From contig CAYVSA010000045.1 of NCBI GenBank assembly GCA_964454175.1, forward strand, positions 1 through 17,364: a stretch of DNA of 17,364 nucleotides. Reading direction: 5' to 3'. This DNA is from an uncultured Pseudomonadota bacterium (GTDB taxonomy: Bacteria > BMS3Abin14). Both the position numbers and the translations under genes were made by a program. Positions 8,306-15,796 of this stretch are shown here, piece by piece. Each line of letters opens with the position of its first letter. Within the stretch, counting starts at the first letter, position 1. The notes under the pieces were generated by a model. That model searched no databases, was not told the DNA's origin, and saw only the letters and a list, made by a program, of their open reading frames with translations.

Positions 8306-8914
8306 ATGAAATACATCACGGTTTTTCCAGAGTATCCTATAAGCATCTATCAGATAAACGAGCTTAAAAGATACAGGAAAAAAGTCCTCCATGCCCAGAT
8401 AGAAGGCTCAGCCCTTATTCGCATTCTGAACAGCCCATCAAGGGTTCTCAGGACGGTTGATGGACACCACGTAAATAAGTCCTTCATAGTGGGGGTCAGG
8501 GATTACGTGGATCCGCAGAGCAGGAAATCACGTTTAGCCGAATACGAGCGAAGAACCCAGGTCAACCTGTATGTCTCCATGGAACTGGCGACATTAGAAG
8601 AGGTTTCTGGAGTAATAAGCGTTCGAAGAATTGCCGATGACATAGAATTGTGTCTGGAAAGAGCCCTCATATCATCGAAGGATTACGATTTTATTGGGAT
8701 GCTCACGGATTGGAATACCACCGAAAAACTCGATACTCTTATAGATCCGGGGATAATGAACGTTTTCGACCAGGCCAGGCTGAGCCATTCCTTCCTGGCC
8801 ATCAACAAGCACCTGGTAAAGAACTTCGTCATGATGCGTGACCTGGGCGTGGAGCCGGTGGAATCGCTCCTCGGTCCGGTACTCCCTGGTGAGGAAGATG
8901 CCTCGTCGGGGTAG
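8306..8914 (+). CDS. Hypothetical soluble protein
   Basis: 202-aa ORF with ATG, AAGGCGG purine-rich upstream sequence and globular composition; no family recognised. Confidence 0.65.
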   Translation: MKYITVFPEYPISIYQINELKRYRKKVLHAQIEGSALIRILNSPSRVLRTVDGHHVNKSFIVGVRDYVDPQSRKSRLAEYERRTQVNLYVSMELATLEEVSGVISVRRIADDIELCLERALISSKDYDFIGMLTDWNTTEKLDTLIDPGIMNVFDQARLSHSFLAINKHLVKNFVMMRDLGVEPVESLLGPVLPGEEDASSG

Positions 8915-8932
8915 TGCCGGCCCATGGCCGGA

Positions 8933-9040
8933 GTCCCGGGACCCAGGTCCCAAGTCCCAGGTTGGTCGTTTCACTCCGGTCCAATATCCCACGTCCAATG
9001 TCCAATGTGATAAGTCCAGATTTCTAATTTCTCGTTTCTG
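8933..9040. repeat. Three blocks of degenerate tandem heptamers
   Basis: gtcccgg/gacccag/gtcccaa/gtcccag (8933-8960); gtccaat/atcccac/gtccaat/gtccaat (8979-9006); atttcta/atttctc/gtttctg (9020-9040). Confidence 0.75.
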
Positions 9041-9262
9041 GTCAGAAAAATTCATCCACACAAGACAGGACTGCCTCACGCCCGCTCCTTTCAGTCGCTC
9101 AAGCTCGCAAAGGCCGCAAAGAAAGCTTTGGGGTTTACATCAAAGGACAAGAGCTAATTCCCCAACACCAAAAAACGACCTGCGCCGCGGCATTCGGGAA
9201 ACCCGGGCCCCAAGTGTGGTGATTCAGGGCCAAGGACCAGATCAGTGAACCAATAAAGTCAG

Positions 9263-9334
9263 AAGGGAGCCTGTGCGATCACGAAGCGAAGCTCAAGGCA
9301 CTTGCGAAGGCGAAGGATCGACACAGGATCCCTT
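9263..9334. repeat. REP-like imperfect palindrome containing four CGAAG motifs
   Basis: AAGGGAGCCTGTGCGATC ... GATCGACACAGGATCCCTT are near-perfect inverted arms. Confidence 0.6.
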
Positions 9335-9351
9335 ATTTAAAGCATTTTATT

Positions 9352-9382
9352 AAAAAAAGGGCCCCGATTCGGGGCCCTTTTT
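9352..9382. terminator. Bidirectional rho-independent terminator downstream of the selenoprotein gene
   Basis: A7-GGGCCCCG-att-CGGGGCCC-T5; gives a 7-U tail on the minus strand. Confidence 0.85.
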
Positions 9383-9390
9383 GGATCATC

Positions 9391-9414
9391 GGCTGCCGCG
9401 CCTCCGGCGCAGCC
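9391..9414 (-). promoter_or_regulatory. Putative SECIS element for the C-terminal Sec73 (in the 3' UTR)
   Basis: mRNA UGA-GGCGUCUAGU-GGCUGCGCC-GGA-GGCGCGGCAGCC; 8-bp stem with G-rich loop starting about 10-11 nt after UGA. Confidence 0.7.
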
Positions 9415-9415
9415 A

Positions 9416-9643
9416 CTAGACGCCTCACGTCCCCCCATAACCAACCTTTACCTCACCGCCTTCCAGGATCACAGGAACCTGGCGTTTGCCGCCGCTGTGG
9501 GCGAGCATTTCGTCGAGGAATTCCTTGTTTGTGAGAACGTCGCGGTAATCTACCTTCTTGCCTTCAGCTTCCAAGGCCTCACGGGCCTCATTGGTATAGG
9601 GTCAACCGGCTTTTCCATAGATAATTATTGTTTCGTCGCTCAT
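9416..9643 (-). CDS. UXX-star family glutaredoxin-like selenoprotein with two Sec residues (75 aa)
   Basis: MSDETIIIYGKAG-U-PYTNEAREALEAEGKKVDYRDVLTNKEFLDEMLAHSGGKRQVPVILEGGEVKVGYGGT-U-GV*. TGA at 9602-9604 and 9425-9427, TAG at 9416-9418, GGAGGA RBS, glutaredoxin VP and G-Y-GG motifs. Confidence 0.92.
9571..9594 (-). promoter_or_regulatory. Putative SECIS element for Sec14 (inside the CDS)
   Basis: mRNA UGA-CCCUAUACCAAU-GAGGCC-CGUGA-GGCCUU; hairpin begins 12 nt after UGA, with an alternative CCAA/UUGG lower stem. Confidence 0.65.
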
Positions 9644-9815
9644 GGCATTCCTCCATGCAGTGGTTATTGTTGTTTCCAATAATTATAGCCTATTAGATTG
9701 ACCGTTTCTATAGGGAATCGGTTCCAGCTCAACATCTCCCACTCATTGGGGCTGGCATAACCTTCAGGTTTCTGTTAGTAAGTAACGCTTCGACTCATCG
9801 CGGCGGAGGTCCACA

Positions 9816-10346
9816 ATGCATCTTACTGTTATTCCCGAACGCTGCTCCGGCTGCAAGGTCTGTGAGCTGGCCTGCAGCGTGGGGAGGATGGGGGTCAACA
9901 ACCCCAAAAAAAGCTGTGTCAGGGTGATGGTCCTGTATCCGCAGCCAGTCATCCGTATGCCCATTATCTGCAAACAGTGCGGCATCCCCAAGTGCGCGGA
10001 GAGCTGCCCGACCAACGCGATTTTCAGGGAAAATGGGATCGTGCGCCTGGACGGGGAGAAATGTATCTCCTGCAACCAGTGCATCATAAGCTGTCCTTTC
10101 GGCGCCATGTTCCTCCATGAAGATGTGGAGCACCCCATAAAGTGCGATCTTTGCGACGGTGCACCACTGTGCGTCGAGGCGTGCCCGAAAGAAGCCCTGA
10201 AATTCCATCCGAAGCATATCCTGGGACAGGCTCACAGGCTGTCGGCCGCGAGAAATTACGCCAAAATGAGCAAGGTTGAATACATGGACGGCGATCACAA
10301 GAAGATACTTCGCTACGCCAGGGAAAAGGTGAAAAAAGATGATTAA
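9816..10346 (+). CDS. 4Fe-4S dicluster/polyferredoxin small subunit of aldehyde oxidoreductase
   Basis: CSGCKVCELAC, CKQCGIPKCAESCP, CISCNQCIISCP, KCDLCDGAPLCVEACP; GGAGG RBS; overlaps the next start. Confidence 0.93.
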   Translation: MHLTVIPERCSGCKVCELACSVGRMGVNNPKKSCVRVMVLYPQPVIRMPIICKQCGIPKCAESCPTNAIFRENGIVRLDGEKCISCNQCIISCPFGAMFLHEDVEHPIKCDLCDGAPLCVEACPKEALKFHPKHILGQAHRLSAARNYAKMSKVEYMDGDHKKILRYAREKVKKDD

Positions 10347-12147
10347 GGGTGGCTATTTCTTCTCCGTGCTGGACGTTGACCTCACCCGGGGTGAGGCTAA
10401 CGTTGTCCCTCTCAGCGAGAAGATCGCGTACGATTACATAGGGGGCCGTGGTTTCGGGGCCCGCTTCGTGGCGGACAATATCAGGAGGGTAAAAAGGAAG
10501 ATCGATCCCCTCGGTCCTGAAAATATTCTTGTCATAGCGCCTGGACCCCTCACGGGCCTGTACCTCCCGGCTTCTGGTAAAAACTCCTTTATCACTCTTT
10601 CGCCGGCGACAGGTATTTACGGAGACAGCAGCATGGGGGGGATGTTCGGTGTCGAACTCAGGCAGGCAGGTTACGACGCCGTAGTTATCAGGGGAAAGGC
10701 CGCGGAGCTTTCGGCCCTTGCCATTGATGACGGCAGGATCAGTATAATTCCGATCCCTGAGGCGAAGGGTAAAACGACCCTGGAGACGGAGAAGCTGGTG
10801 CGCCAGGCTACGGGCGACGAGGACATGAAAATTGCGTCCATTGGTGTGGCAGGAGAGAATAAGGCGGTCTTCGCATGTGTCAATACCGACTGGAGCCGCA
10901 ATGCAGGGCGCATAGGCATTGGTGCTGTCATGGGTTCCAAAAACCTCAAGGCTGTTGCCGTTCGCGGTTCAAGAGACTTACCCGTCCACGACCTTGACGA
11001 GCTGATGGATATCTCCCGGGAGGGGTACGAAGTCATCTCAAACCACAAGTTCTTCCGCTTCTGGCAGGAGCAGGGCCTCATGTCTGTGATCGACTATGCC
11101 AACACCATGGGGATCCTGCCAGCTTACAACTTCAGGCAGACAGTTTTTGAACGGGCCGACAAGATGAACGGTTACGTTATGGAGGACCGCTACAAAATAG
11201 GCGACTCCGCATGCTTCGGCTGTTCCATGAGCTGCGGTAACGTGTGCCTCGTCAAGGAAGGCAAGTACAGGGGCACTGTGACGGAGGGGCCGGAGTACGA
11301 GTCCGCGGCCATGCTGGGAAGCAACCTGGGCGTATCCAATTTCGCCTGCATACTCAAGGCCAACGCCCTTTGCGATGACGTGGGCCTCGATACAATTTCC
11401 AGCGGAGGGATCATCGGCGCTCTGATAGAGGGCCAGGAAAAGGGAGTTATCAAAAAGAGCGACCTGGACGGTATGGAGATAGGCTGGGGTGACGAGGACA
11501 GTATCCTCGAGCTCATTGAAAAGACTGCCAACAGGGAAGGTGTGGGAGACACACTGGCCGGGGGGGCCAGGGCAATACTTACCCGCTGGCCCGGTCTCGA
11601 TGGGATATTATCCCATGTGAAGGGCCTGGAGCAGTCGGCCTACGATTCCAGGGCTGCCATTTCAATGGCCCTGGGGTACGGTACATCGGATATAGGTGCC
11701 CACCACACCAGGGCCTGGACAGTGGCGTCGGAACTGGAAAACGGTGTGGGCTGGGGCCTGGAGGAGAAAGCAGACCTTGTGATCTATCATCAGACTGTTC
11801 GGCCCCTTTTCGACATGTTTGGGGTCTGCAGGCTGCCATGGATCGAGCTGGGGTTTCCCGAGGACTACTACCGCCGTTTTTACAAAGCAGCTACCGGACT
11901 TGACAGGTCCATGGAGGAACTGCTTGCCTGTTCCTCCCACGTCTACGATCTTACCCGCGCCATCAATGTAAAGCTGGGCGTTTCCCGCAGTGACGATTAT
12001 CCTCCGGCCCGGACCTTCGAGGACCCGGTGCCGTCAGGGCCTACCAAGGGCAGTGTAGTCTCCAGGGAAGAATACGAAAAGATCCTGGATGTCTATTACG
12101 ATAAGCGTGGATGGAGTGCTGAAGGTGAGCCGCCCATCTCTTTATAA
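10339..12147 (+). CDS. aor: Tungsten-dependent aldehyde:ferredoxin oxidoreductase family protein (AOR/FOR/WOR)
   Basis: GGRGFG, AGRIGIGAVMGSKNLKAV, CFGCSMSC, GPEYES, CDDVGLDTIS, VKGLE, YYDKRGW motifs; 602 aa. Confidence 0.95.
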   Translation: MIKGGYFFSVLDVDLTRGEANVVPLSEKIAYDYIGGRGFGARFVADNIRRVKRKIDPLGPENILVIAPGPLTGLYLPASGKNSFITLSPATGIYGDSSMGGMFGVELRQAGYDAVVIRGKAAELSALAIDDGRISIIPIPEAKGKTTLETEKLVRQATGDEDMKIASIGVAGENKAVFACVNTDWSRNAGRIGIGAVMGSKNLKAVAVRGSRDLPVHDLDELMDISREGYEVISNHKFFRFWQEQGLMSVIDYANTMGILPAYNFRQTVFERADKMNGYVMEDRYKIGDSACFGCSMSCGNVCLVKEGKYRGTVTEGPEYESAAMLGSNLGVSNFACILKANALCDDVGLDTISSGGIIGALIEGQEKGVIKKSDLDGMEIGWGDEDSILELIEKTANREGVGDTLAGGARAILTRWPGLDGILSHVKGLEQSAYDSRAAISMALGYGTSDIGAHHTRAWTVASELENGVGWGLEEKADLVIYHQTVRPLFDMFGVCRLPWIELGFPEDYYRRFYKAATGLDRSMEELLACSSHVYDLTRAINVKLGVSRSDDYPPARTFEDPVPSGPTKGSVVSREEYEKILDVYYDKRGWSAEGEPPISL

Positions 12148-12276: not shown

Positions 12277-13311
12277 TCAGTATAATCTTACCGCTTCCGC
12301 CTTGAAGATCAGCGAGACCTCAACACCCAGGTTCAGTCCCATTCCATTGAAAGAATCCCGGGTTATCCTCGAAGTTAAAGTTTCCTCTGCCCGAACTGTT
12401 ATCTCCACCGACCCGTTCCTCTCCTGAATACGGTTTATCTTTCCCCGTATCGAGTTCCTGGCGCTGGTCGACACCGTCTGAAGGCTGACGAGTATGGATT
12501 CGGGCGGGACGGAGGCTGTTTTTGTACCTTCAGGCGACCCCCCTGGTACGTAGATTGTCATCCTTCCGGTATCAAATACCATGCTGCTGCCGCTCTGGTA
12601 GACTGCACCATGGAAGACATTCTCCATGGCCCCCAACTGAGGAGATCCTCCCACGAGAGTGATCACCTCGTCGGAGATACGGTAAGCTTGTTCAATATCG
12701 TGGGTTGTGAAAATGACGCTCACTCCCTCGTCCCTGCACTTGTCCGTCAGGATCCTTTCTATGACTGATCTGCTTGCAGGGTCTACGTTCGCAAGAGGCT
12801 CATCTAGCAGCAGCACCTTCGGATCGGTGACAATGGCCCTTGCCAGCGCGACCCGCTGGGCTTCTCCGCCGGACAGGGAGTCGTGGGGCCTTTTTTCAAA
12901 ACCCTGAAGACCCACCAAGGCGATGGCTTTTCCGGCCGCCGTAAGGCGCTCGGTGCGCCGCAGGCCCCGTCTGGCCAATCCATAGGCGACGTTGTTTTCC
13001 ACATTTGTCCTGAACAGGTAGGGAGATTGAAGGACAACCCCCAGATCCCGGCGATATTGATCCAGGGCTGTTTCAGCGAGAAGGGAGAGATTTCGCCCCC
13101 TGTAAGTGATTGTGCCGCGGTAGGGCAATAGCAACTGAATCAGTACGTGCAAAAGTGTGGTTTTGCCTGAACCGTTCGGACCGGTAATCGCGATGATCTC
13201 CCCATCATTCAGAGAAAGAGAGGGAATATTCAGGACTTCCCTCTTTCCCAGAACGACACCCAGTTCATCAAAGGTGAACAAAGCCTTGGACCTTTCAGAA
13301 GATTGCTTCAT
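12277..13311 (-). CDS. tupC: Tungstate ABC transporter ATP-binding protein with C-terminal TOBE domain
   Basis: Walker A GPNGSGKT, LSGGE, LLLDEP, TSARN and FKAEAV TOBE motifs; operon context. Confidence 0.88.
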   Translation of the reverse strand: MKQSSERSKALFTFDELGVVLGKREVLNIPSLSLNDGEIIAITGPNGSGKTTLLHVLIQLLLPYRGTITYRGRNLSLLAETALDQYRRDLGVVLQSPYLFRTNVENNVAYGLARRGLRRTERLTAAGKAIALVGLQGFEKRPHDSLSGGEAQRVALARAIVTDPKVLLLDEPLANVDPASRSVIERILTDKCRDEGVSVIFTTHDIEQAYRISDEVITLVGGSPQLGAMENVFHGAVYQSGSSMVFDTGRMTIYVPGGSPEGTKTASVPPESILVSLQTVSTSARNSIRGKINRIQERNGSVEITVRAEETLTSRITRDSFNGMGLNLGVEVSLIFKAEAVRLY

Positions 13312-14006
13312 CCGGAAGTACTCCTGGACTGGAGCTTTCGAAATGTGAGGTTAACGGCGAGTGCCACTGTTAACAGGACAATGCCAAGTGCCATGCCGAA
13401 AGCGAACTCGCCCTTGCTGGTCTCCAGTGCGATGGCAGTGGTGAGGGTTCTGGTGTAGCCCTTGATGTTGCCTCCGAGCATTATGGCAGACCCTACTTCT
13501 GCGATGATCCTCCCGAACCCGTTAAAGAGCGCTGCCATGAGTCCGAATCGGGCTTCAATTAAAATGGTACTGGAAACTTGCGAACCGGACGCTCCAAGGC
13601 TCAGGGCTGTCGGCCGGGCTCTTGGATCCACCGAATTCACCGCGGCTACGGTTAGCCCGACAATAAGCGGTAAGGCCAGGACGATGTCACCCAGGATGAT
13701 CCCCGATGGCGTGAAGAGCAGATCGAGAAACCCGAGGGGACCTTTTCGGGAGAGAAAGGAGTAGCCCAAAAGACCCACCACCACCGTGGGCAGGGCCATG
13801 AGTGTGTTGAAAAGAGTGATAAGTACCTCCTTGCCCAAAAACTCCCTTGTGGCGATAGTATATGCTATGGGTATGCCGAGCACAGCGGCGATAAATGTGG
13901 CGCTCAGTGCGATCCTCAGGGAAAGGATACTGATCGAGACGACATCCGGGTCGAAAGTGACTATGAGGCGGAAGGCCCCTGCCAGGGCTTCTATGAAATA
14001 TTCCAC
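13308..14006 (-). CDS. tupB: Tungstate ABC transporter permease
   Basis: LPTVVVGL, LSRKGPLG, FGRIIAEVG, GGNIKGYTRTLTTAIALETSKG. Confidence 0.92.
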   Translation of the reverse strand: MEYFIEALAGAFRLIVTFDPDVVSISILSLRIALSATFIAAVLGIPIAYTIATREFLGKEVLITLFNTLMALPTVVVGLLGYSFLSRKGPLGFLDLLFTPSGIILGDIVLALPLIVGLTVAAVNSVDPRARPTALSLGASGSQVSSTILIEARFGLMAALFNGFGRIIAEVGSAIMLGGNIKGYTRTLTTAIALETSKGEFAFGMALGIVLLTVALAVNLTFRKLQSRSTSG

Positions 14007-14025
14007 AGTAGATCAGGTCTCCGTT

Positions 14026-14877
14026 TCACCGATTCCCCTGTTTCCTGGAACTTTGTCCCTCGACCAGCGGTTCGAACATCCGTCTGCCTTCAGGATCTCG
14101 GAAATCACCTATCAGCCTCTGCCCTTCCTCCGAGATCATGAAACGGATGAGCCTTGAGGCTCCCTCGAAGTTGACGTGGGGGTTTTTGGCCGGGTTGACC
14201 GCCATTATGCCGTAGGGGTTAAAAAGCAGATCTGAGGGTTTTACGAAGAGCATTTTAAGGTCCACCTTGTCGGCATATTTAAGGAAAGTGCCGGAATCGG
14301 AGAGGGTGTATCCTCTTTTCTCGTCAGCGATGGTGAGGGTCTCACCCATGCCCTTTCCCGACTCAAGGTACCAGCCAGTGCCCTCGGGGATCTTTCCCAG
14401 GACAGCCCTCCAGATGTGCTGCTCCTTGATGTGTGTGCCGGAACTGTCTCCCCTGGAAACGAAATATGACTGAGACCGGGCTATCTTCCTGAAAGCTTCC
14501 TCGGCGGTTCCGGCTCTCCCCACTCCGGCCGGGTCCTGTGCCGGCCCTGCAACGACGAAGTAGTTTGCCATAACGGTGTGGTGGTCCACTCCGTATCCGG
14601 CATCAATGAAGGCTTTTTCCTTCGAGGGAGCGTGCACCAGGGTGACATCCACATCCCCATTTTCGGCCAGCTTCAGCGCCTTGCCGGTGCCCACTGCGAT
14701 AACGTCCACCTTGATCCCCGTCTTTTTTTCGAATACGGGCAGGAGATACTCTAAAAGCCCCGTGTTGTCGGTGCTTGTGGTGGATGAAAGGCGCAGCCTT
14801 TCGCCAGCGGCAGCTGCTGTTGAGAATGAGAGGGTGATGAAAATACAGAGTACTACAATACAGGTCCTGCGCGCCAA
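14026..14877 (-). CDS. tupA: Tungstate ABC transporter substrate-binding protein
   Basis: Signal peptide then LSSTTSTDNTGLL, VGTGKAL, VHAP, SRGDSSGTH, NPYG. Start set at TTG 14877 after GGAGG (14884-14888). Confidence 0.92.
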   Translation of the reverse strand: MARRTCIVVLCIFITLSFSTAAAAGERLRLSSTTSTDNTGLLEYLLPVFEKKTGIKVDVIAVGTGKALKLAENGDVDVTLVHAPSKEKAFIDAGYGVDHHTVMANYFVVAGPAQDPAGVGRAGTAEEAFRKIARSQSYFVSRGDSSGTHIKEQHIWRAVLGKIPEGTGWYLESGKGMGETLTIADEKRGYTLSDSGTFLKYADKVDLKMLFVKPSDLLFNPYGIMAVNPAKNPHVNFEGASRLIRFMISEEGQRLIGDFRDPEGRRMFEPLVEGQSSRKQGNR

Positions 14878-14878
14878 T

Positions 14879-15796
14879 TTAAGCCTCCATTTCCTTGTAG
14901 AGGATCTTTCCGGTGTCCTGAGTGTGGTATCCTCCCAGAACTGATGCGTAGTCAGTAAACTCGCTGTCCCCCAGGATGGAGATGAAGTCCTGAACTGCTT
15001 TTGCGAAGAACACCTCCTTGAGGACAGCCAGGTCGAAGCGCTCCACCTGCAGGGGGATGAAGTCAAGGCCCATGGATGATGCCGCAGCCTCAATTCCCAC
15101 ACCGGCGTCTGCTTTTCCACTCATCACCTCCAGGGCGACCTCGAAATGCCCGGGCACAGCAGAATCATATCCGGTTATGGACTCGACCGGGATTTCGAGC
15201 CGGTCAAGCTCACTGTCCAAAAGCAGCCTCGTCCCTGTTCCAACTTCCCTGTTTGCAAACCTGATCTTTCCTCCTGCCAGGTCTTTGAGTGATTTTATGC
15301 CCAGAGGGTTTCCACTGGGGAGGATCAGTCCCTGGGTTCTTTTTGCAAAGCCCACTAGCACGGCCATGTCCCCGATCGACTCAACAAGGTGCCCCATGTT
15401 GTAGCCCTCACCTTCCTCGTCCAGGAGATGGATGCACGCGATGTGGCAGACCCTTCGCTTCAGTGCCAGGAGCCCTTCGCTGCTGCCCGCCCTGGATCTT
15501 AATGGGATTATTTCGGGGTGACGTTTTCTGAACAGGGAGGCAGCGTAACCCAGGAGGGGGTCGTCGCTGCCGGCGATCAGCAGAAGATCCTCCGCCCGGG
15601 CGAGAATAGAGATATCCTCCGGCACGTTGACCACGCTGGATTCGATCCACCTCGCAAGCATCTCCCGGGGAAAGACCCATTTGCCTGTTATCTTGGTCCC
15701 CGGAAGGCCTCTCTCGTGTATCAGGGTGTAGATCTGTTTTTCGTTTACGCCCAGGTAATCGGCGGCCTGACGAGTGTCCAGCAGCGAGCTGTCCAT
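14879..15796 (-). CDS. Excisionase-type HTH + PBP-like (molybdate/tungstate-binding-like) transcriptional regulator, TaoR-like
   Basis: N-terminal LLDTRQAADYLGVNEKQIY...KITGKWVFP; C-terminal AGSDDPLL, GSSEGL, NREVGTGTR, ADAGVG; first gene of the tup operon. Confidence 0.85.
   Translation of the reverse strand: MDSSLLDTRQAADYLGVNEKQIYTLIHERGLPGTKITGKWVFPREMLARWIESSVVNVPEDISILARAEDLLLIAGSDDPLLGYAASLFRKRHPEIIPLRSRAGSSEGLLALKRRVCHIACIHLLDEEGEGYNMGHLVESIGDMAVLVGFAKRTQGLILPSGNPLGIKSLKDLAGGKIRFANREVGTGTRLLLDSELDRLEIPVESITGYDSAVPGHFEVALEVMSGKADAGVGIEAAASSMGLDFIPLQVERFDLAVLKEVFFAKAVQDFISILGDSEFTDYASVLGGYHTQDTGKILYKEMEA

Follow-up and report, generated by a model that had tools for sequence, protein, structure and literature searches.

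The question raised by positions 9416 to 9643 of this DNA is whether an interval for which the standard ORF list gives no selenoprotein gene encodes a small protein with two selenocysteines (Sec), and what such a protein would do. The window analyzed here is the whole 17,364-nt stretch from contig CAYVSA010000045.1 of an uncultured Pseudomonadota bacterium. A sequence-only reading had placed in this interval a glutaredoxin-like gene missed by the ORF track, with a ribosome binding site, an ATG, 75 codons including UGA at codons 14 and 73, a TAG stop and a terminator. All of these elements are present on the minus strand, whereas translation of the plus strand of 9416–9643 yields no such gene. 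Read from 9643 to 9416 with TGA as Sec, the frame runs for 75 residues and then reaches TAG. UGA14 (9602..9604, minus strand, as are all features of this gene) falls at the N-terminal active-site position, generating U-P-Y-T at residues 14–17, and UGA73 (9425..9427) encodes the second Sec, third from the C-terminus (TGA-GGC-GTC-TAG). The minus-strand translation contains no Cys and ends in U-G-V-stop, in agreement with the earlier description. A GGAGG ribosome binding site (9650..9654) lies 6 nt 5' of the ATG, and GGAG/GGAGG-type sites also precede most orthologues. An intrinsic terminator with a symmetric A-run, GC stem and U-run is located at 9352..9382. It contains a 14-nt perfect inverted repeat and folds into a 13-pair hairpin plus U-run (z -4.18) that none of 200 shuffled sequences equalled, but it is absent from the list produced by a simple terminator scan. 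A weak sigma70-like promoter match (TAGAAA-17-TATAAT, 9682..9710) is no better than chance, as one was found against 0.5 +/- 0.7 expected in shuffles.

The encoded protein matches the NF041114 profile (UXX-star selenoprotein family 1) over its entire length (1–70 of 70) with 108.9 bits, well above the curated cut-off of 72, and the Uxx-star subfamily NF041212 with 89.4 bits (cut-off 66); the proposed UXX-star assignment is thereby confirmed. Scores against families 2 and 3 (NF041211, NF047338) and the HUGP/GUXX-star fusion NF045501 fall below their cut-offs. NF041212 and these three profiles share with the protein a glutaredoxin core ending in (U/C)-x-x-stop, and the protein differs from NF045501 in having no fused domain. 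The Grx3 profile TIGR02181 gives 38.9 bits against a cut-off of 90, and the site is UxxT, not CxxC. A table in a 2026 review (PMC13188914) lists NF041114 as 'Distant Grx-like protein 1' with a UxxT site and two Sec, traits found here as U14-P-Y-T17 plus U73, and the pattern behind the family name (Sec, two residues, stop) is seen in TGA-GGC-GTC-TAG. The reading as a double selenoprotein is supported, and the two-Sec state is already catalogued for family 1 in that table. With a full-length match, UxxT, a U-x-x-stop tail and two Sec common to both, nothing was found that separates the protein from family 1, of which it is a member from an uncultured lineage. Within the literature searched, the term UXX-star occurs only in this review, which cites Haft and Tolstoy 2025, a paper outside the search, for family 2 and the fusions. 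The name 'Distant Grx-like protein 1' is absent from the searched text of PMC2398784, whose supplements, outside the search, may hold it, and the BSepDB main text has no match for UXX or Grx.

Both UGA codons recur in relatives. The gene is above cut-off in 13 of 15 genomes of the host's own family, each time with two TGAs, and the two genomes that lack it have completeness values of 73% and 80%. Of 45 distant genomes, two contain a gene above cut-off, which has two TGAs in one of them and no TGA in the other. Seven named loci, including Syntrophales and Spirochaetota, have both TGAs. Counting the duplicate pairs L016/L028 and L017/L032, the protein family is represented by 22 two-TGA loci, 20 of them distinct; in every one, codons for Gly and Val and then a stop codon come after UGA73, and all three types of stop occur. 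A DNA pattern scan of metagenomes, aimed at the tail alone, returned at least 120 stretches, 80 of which were analyzed; 79 proved to be family members, comprising 63 Sec14/Sec73 forms, 12 Cys14/Sec73 forms and four that end before the active site. The scan pattern demanded the tail TGA, so the frequency of tail Cys is not derivable from this set. Viral contigs returned no loci. In a set of 150 protein representatives, the sequence stops at the tail site in 71, whereas the site is occupied by Trp in 13 (code-4 translation), by Cys in 12 and by Trp then Cys in two; 23 have other tails and 29 were not anchored. The distance from the tail Cys to the C-terminus varies in the Cys-tail homologues, being +2 in five of 12. 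Many homologues have Cys at position 14, and P0024 (108 bits), P0064 and P0030 are Cys/Cys members above the family cut-off; a search for Cys aligned to both UGAs, suggested by the sequence-only reading, is thus answered by natural homologues. Locus L038 (75.9 bits, cut-off 72) and protein P0009 match family 1 without a tail Cys or Sec, and L039 combines a CxxC site with the tail Sec. Two database proteins translated with UGA as Trp (P0034 and P0035) suggest a U-C-F-stop tail with adjacent Sec and Cys, and P0077 joins an ArsR/SmtB regulator to a Uxx-star domain whose sequence stops at the tail site. Because it scores above the NF041114 and NF041212 cut-offs and both TGAs recur in relatives, the gene is not a chance frame, and we conclude that it is almost certainly a real double-Sec member of the family.

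Each UGA is followed by a SECIS-like hairpin. Hairpin 1 (9572..9590) lies within the coding sequence and has a 7-bp stem with a CGUGA loop, 18 nt 3' of UGA14; hairpin 2 (9395..9413) lies wholly in the 3' UTR past the TAG and has an 8-bp stem with a GGA loop, 19 nt 3' of UGA73. As a SECIS criterion, a passage of bioRxiv 10.1101/2022.07.06.499078 uses a stem of 7 bp whose loop contains G. A stem test, devised after the folds had been seen, measured the longest uninterrupted stem closing a G-containing loop of 3–5 nt that starts 13–27 nt after the UGA. By this measure, all 20 distinct loci had stems of at least 5 bp after both UGA14 and UGA73, and the UGA73 stem reached at least 7 bp in 16 of 20. 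Of 751 ordinary host TGA stops, 80 had stems of at least 5 bp and 12 had stems of at least 7 bp. In the metagenome set, hairpin 2 was at least 5 bp in 73 and at least 7 bp in 49 of the 79 orthologues. Hairpin 1 reached 5 bp in 39 of 63 Sec14 forms against 0 of 12 Cys14 forms, although the latter look interrelated and are not independent observations. Five Sec14 orthologues (L065, L080, L094, L123 and L138) have, by the stem test, a hairpin of 2 bp or less after the first UGA and may use a different SECIS geometry. The codons within hairpin 1 are constrained: all 22 loci use GCC and 18 of them use CGT, compared with a CGT share of 8.7% among host Arg codons. RNAalifold recovered a 5-bp stem for hairpin 1 with one pair changed on both sides, but gave no consensus pairs for hairpin 2 on a MAFFT alignment, since loops of 3–5 nt shift the register. 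The two hairpins of the window are not unusually stable in single-sequence folding (z -0.35 and -1.42), and Rfam has no match within the window. The hairpin of host selD has the same GGA loop at a near-identical distance (offset 20).

The host genome, which is 98.5% complete, contains a tRNA-Sec, a selB above the profile cut-off and a selD that is above cut-off and carries its own in-frame TGA. The host selA is represented by its last ~43 codons only; this 3' fragment, immediately ahead of selB where contig C66 ends, is 60% identical to the SelA of a relative. A selA above cut-off is found in 12 of 15 same-family genomes. The host fragment is most simply explained by an assembly break, and the Sec machinery that the sequence-only reading had called for is in place to this extent. 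A crude UGA-plus-hairpin screen of the host returned 135 candidates, mostly noise. Likely selenoproteins among them, all on minus strands of the host assembly (G000), are a Cys-free Sec-MsrA (C90:2179-3021), a UPYC thioredoxin-fold protein (C56:9439-10236), a UPFC peroxiredoxin-like protein (C70:8333-8833), a CGU protein with, by eye, a UshA-type domain and a multiheme C-terminus (C11:9701-11272), and SelD (C134:180-1109). The Sec-MsrA was considered as a default partner by analogy with the A. oremlandii pair and was rejected: the N-terminus of the host protein resembles a signal peptide, and three family genomes with a UXX-star gene give no MsrA match.

A structural model of the protein was obtained with AlphaFold2 from 69 sequences with Cys substituted for Sec (pLDDT 82). 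The model has a glutaredoxin core that is missing its last helix, the chain ending four residues after G70-G71; the C-terminal tail G68-Y-G-G-T-U-G-V75 (9419..9442) replaces that helix. The best match among solved folds is A. (Clostridium) oremlandii cGrx1 (7c10; Z 9.9, rmsd 2.0, 67 aligned residues), with BC3987, a Prx5 hybrid, Mrx1 and NrdH tied inside 1 Z unit, and most solved glutaredoxin folds align only up to residue ~71. The full model contains extra two-residue strand or bridge segments at Q55-V56 and U73-G74; when residues 1–70 alone were folded as a control with the same 69 rows, the 55–56 strand did not appear. Judged from these secondary-structure strings, U73-G74 of the tail appears to pair with Q55-V56 ahead of Pro57, in keeping with a tail that folds back toward the active site. 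The last block of the model has a pLDDT of 70, and the tendency of AlphaFold to place free tails in grooves counts against tail docking. The R54-Q55-V56-P57 loop (9473..9484) lies ahead of a conserved, presumably cis, proline, at the position of the glutathione groove of glutaredoxins. Pro57 is invariant across the 69 aligned sequences, and K11 and R54 are present in 75 of 75 and 78 of 79 metagenome orthologues, respectively. Alignment with E. coli Grx3 places the conserved Lys of the profile at the Lys that precedes the Grx3 active site, and an Arg of Grx3 falls one alignment column from R54. In glutaredoxins, the cysteine of glutathione (GSH) pairs antiparallel with the residue before the cis-proline, beside the active-site sulfur, and a Lys before the active site together with an Arg near the proline hold the GSH carboxylate. 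Binding of GSH by the TVP and GG regions of glutaredoxins is described in passages of PMC9919958 and PMC9529593.

Comparison with known systems places the protein near, but apart from, several redoxins. The closest solved folds are cGrx1 and the small redoxins of the NrdH/YruB type, which keep the second Cys of CxxC where this protein has T17, and keep the last helix where it has the Sec tail; a passage and a reference title in PMC13188914 describe a Sec glutaredoxin of the cGrx1 kind. Classical dithiol Grx3 has a CxxC site and a helix after the GG motif, both of which are missing from this protein as modeled. The plant GRXS12 and GRXS16 and Chlamydomonas GRX3, monothiol/class II glutaredoxins, are analogues in their mode of action, in that a far-off C-terminal Cys located after the GG motif forms a pair with the active-site residue; a passage of PMC13621322 reports that the disulfide formed between the active-site and C-terminal Cys in the three proteins is reduced by thioredoxin and not by GSH. 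These proteins bind free GSH, keep helix 3, use Cys and belong to a separate family.

The locus is best explained as a stand-alone gene for a cytoplasmic, 75-residue glutaredoxin-fold thiol/selenol oxidoreductase, and for its chemistry we lean, by a modest measure, toward a mechanism resolved by the tail. U14 would act as the nucleophile on an oxidized sulfur of the substrate. Because T17 stands in place of the usual resolving Cys, the tail would supply the resolving residue. U73-G74 would occupy the groove ahead of Pro57, which in glutaredoxins accommodates the Cys-Gly portion of glutathione, and K11 and R54 would probably hold the chain end. U73 would resolve the U14 adduct to an intramolecular Se14–Se73 bond, or to Se–S or S–S bonds in Cys-containing orthologues, and this bond would be re-reduced by a protein system. 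Candidates in the host are TrxB, which is above cut-off, and thioredoxin, which is present; ferredoxin-thioredoxin reductase was discarded as the reductant, having no match in the host. The gene at 9416..9643 is the only PF00462 gene of the host, whose near-complete genome has no match for the glutathione synthetase gene gshB; the protein would then bring its own tethered stand-in for glutathione to a host in which glutathione synthesis was not detected. Above the cut-off, gshB is found in none of 16 same-family genomes, and five of the 16 have weaker GshB-like matches (TIGR01380), which are full length in G001, G010 and G014 and partial in G003 and G009. These weaker matches count against the tail-resolved mechanism, as do the family-1 matches without a tail Cys or Sec and the varying distance of the tail Cys. 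Diselenides are hard to reduce, so turnover of the Sec/Sec form could be slow, which also counts against it. A substrate, partner or conserved neighbor was not found at the loci surveyed. The Sec14–Sec73 diselenide center put forward in the sequence-only reading survives in part: the predicted model is consistent with fold-back, and the diselenide itself is plausible, but Cys14/Sec73 forms (12 of the 75 complete metagenome orthologues) and Cys/Cys forms demonstrate that not every family member needs it. What is conserved is a pair of chalcogens and not the diselenide as such.

Other explanations were weighed against the tail-resolved mechanism. One is that the two Sec coordinate a soft metal or metalloid (Hg, As, Cu) in a chaperone, sensor or sink with no catalytic role; PMC13188914 states in a passage that UXX-star Sec may be metal-binding ligands or may bind unidentified substrates, the P0077 homologue is joined to an ArsR/SmtB metalloregulator, and a docked tail would bring two chalcogens together for a metal as well as for redox chemistry. 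We regard this as unlikely, since P0077 is one of 24 proteins scanned, no metal-resistance neighbor recurs in the flank clusters of the 79 plus 22 loci (representatives scanned), and Pro57 is invariant in a fold class for which, according to a reference title, a cis-proline precludes metal binding (thioredoxin-fold proteins). Somewhat less probable still is a tail that acts in trans, as a swinging arm like the Sec arm of animal thioredoxin reductase, any Se–Se bond then being intermolecular. The glycine-rich tail is the least confident block of the model, the title of entry 7c12 records a domain-swapped form of cGrx1, the closest solved relative, and forms with CxxC plus the tail Sec (L039) do not need the tail as a resolving residue. 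Against this, the tail in the monomer model appears to reach the groove of its own chain, and CxxC forms fit a tail in cis equally well, where it could act on the disulfide as glutathione does. It is scarcely credible that UGA73 is a true stop, leaving 72 residues and one Sec, or that both UGAs are stops in a dead gene: although many database products end at the UGA73 site, the window hairpins are of ordinary stability, hairpin 2 is without an RNAalifold consensus, Rfam is empty and the assembly contains an incomplete selA, every one of the 22 loci has Gly, Val and a second stop after UGA73, the excess of G-loop hairpins of at least 7 bp over ordinary TGA stops is large and extends to the metagenome loci, and natural orthologues have Cys at the site.

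It is also very unlikely that the protein serves the adjoining tungsten system. The gene lies beside an operon for a 4Fe-4S protein and an aldehyde:ferredoxin oxidoreductase (AOR; window 9816-12147, plus strand), which faces genes for an ABC transporter whose binding protein is TupA-like (below cut-off) and for an HTH_17/PBP regulator (window 12277-15796, minus strand); these genes probably form a tungsten-use region. A divergent AOR gene is found upstream in 10 of 14 own-family loci, the window included, but in none of eight loci from other families, and AOR proximity therefore reads as lineage synteny. The largest neighbor cluster covers 10 of the 79 metagenome loci, and the 17 scanned flank representatives are mutually unrelated housekeeping genes. 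The selenoprotein gene, moreover, has its own ribosome binding site and terminator. A functional link to the AOR and tungstate genes was accordingly rejected, and the gene stands alone. On its other side, a 202-residue protein without a Pfam or NCBIfam match is encoded convergently (window 8306-8914, plus strand); it adjoins the selenoprotein gene in eight of 14 own-family loci and gives weak ESM Atlas matches (0.84–0.85), partly to DUF6812. The intergenic segment at window 8915-9350 is made up of dispersed repeats, with imperfect 7-nt tandem units at 8933-9018 and two elements of 40–70 nt (about 9072-9128 and 9264-9332) that each have several further copies elsewhere in the genome.

For a widely distributed family to which PMC13188914 assigns no settled role, tail resolution offers a concrete mechanism that is cheap to test. 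The natural Sec/Sec, Cys/Sec and Cys/Cys variants form a series in which a diselenide, a selenenylsulfide and a disulfide can be compared in one scaffold, and hairpin 2, lying wholly in noncoding sequence where codons impose no constraint, makes a clean system in which to study bacterial SECIS rules. Gene callers cut family members at UGA, as seen in the nearly half of representative homologues that stop at the tail site. A further reading, which we offer tentatively and hold a little less probable than its converse, is that UXX-star proteins are self-contained glutaredoxins whose U-G-x-COOH tail is an encoded and tethered selenium counterpart of the Cys-Gly part of glutathione, bound in the groove in cis and serving anaerobes that have no glutathione. 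This reading was not found in the literature searched; Haft and Tolstoy 2025, which lay outside that search, may show the fold-back. If it is true, glutathione-free anaerobes would run glutaredoxin-type chemistry through a long-range intramolecular diselenide in a protein of 75 residues.
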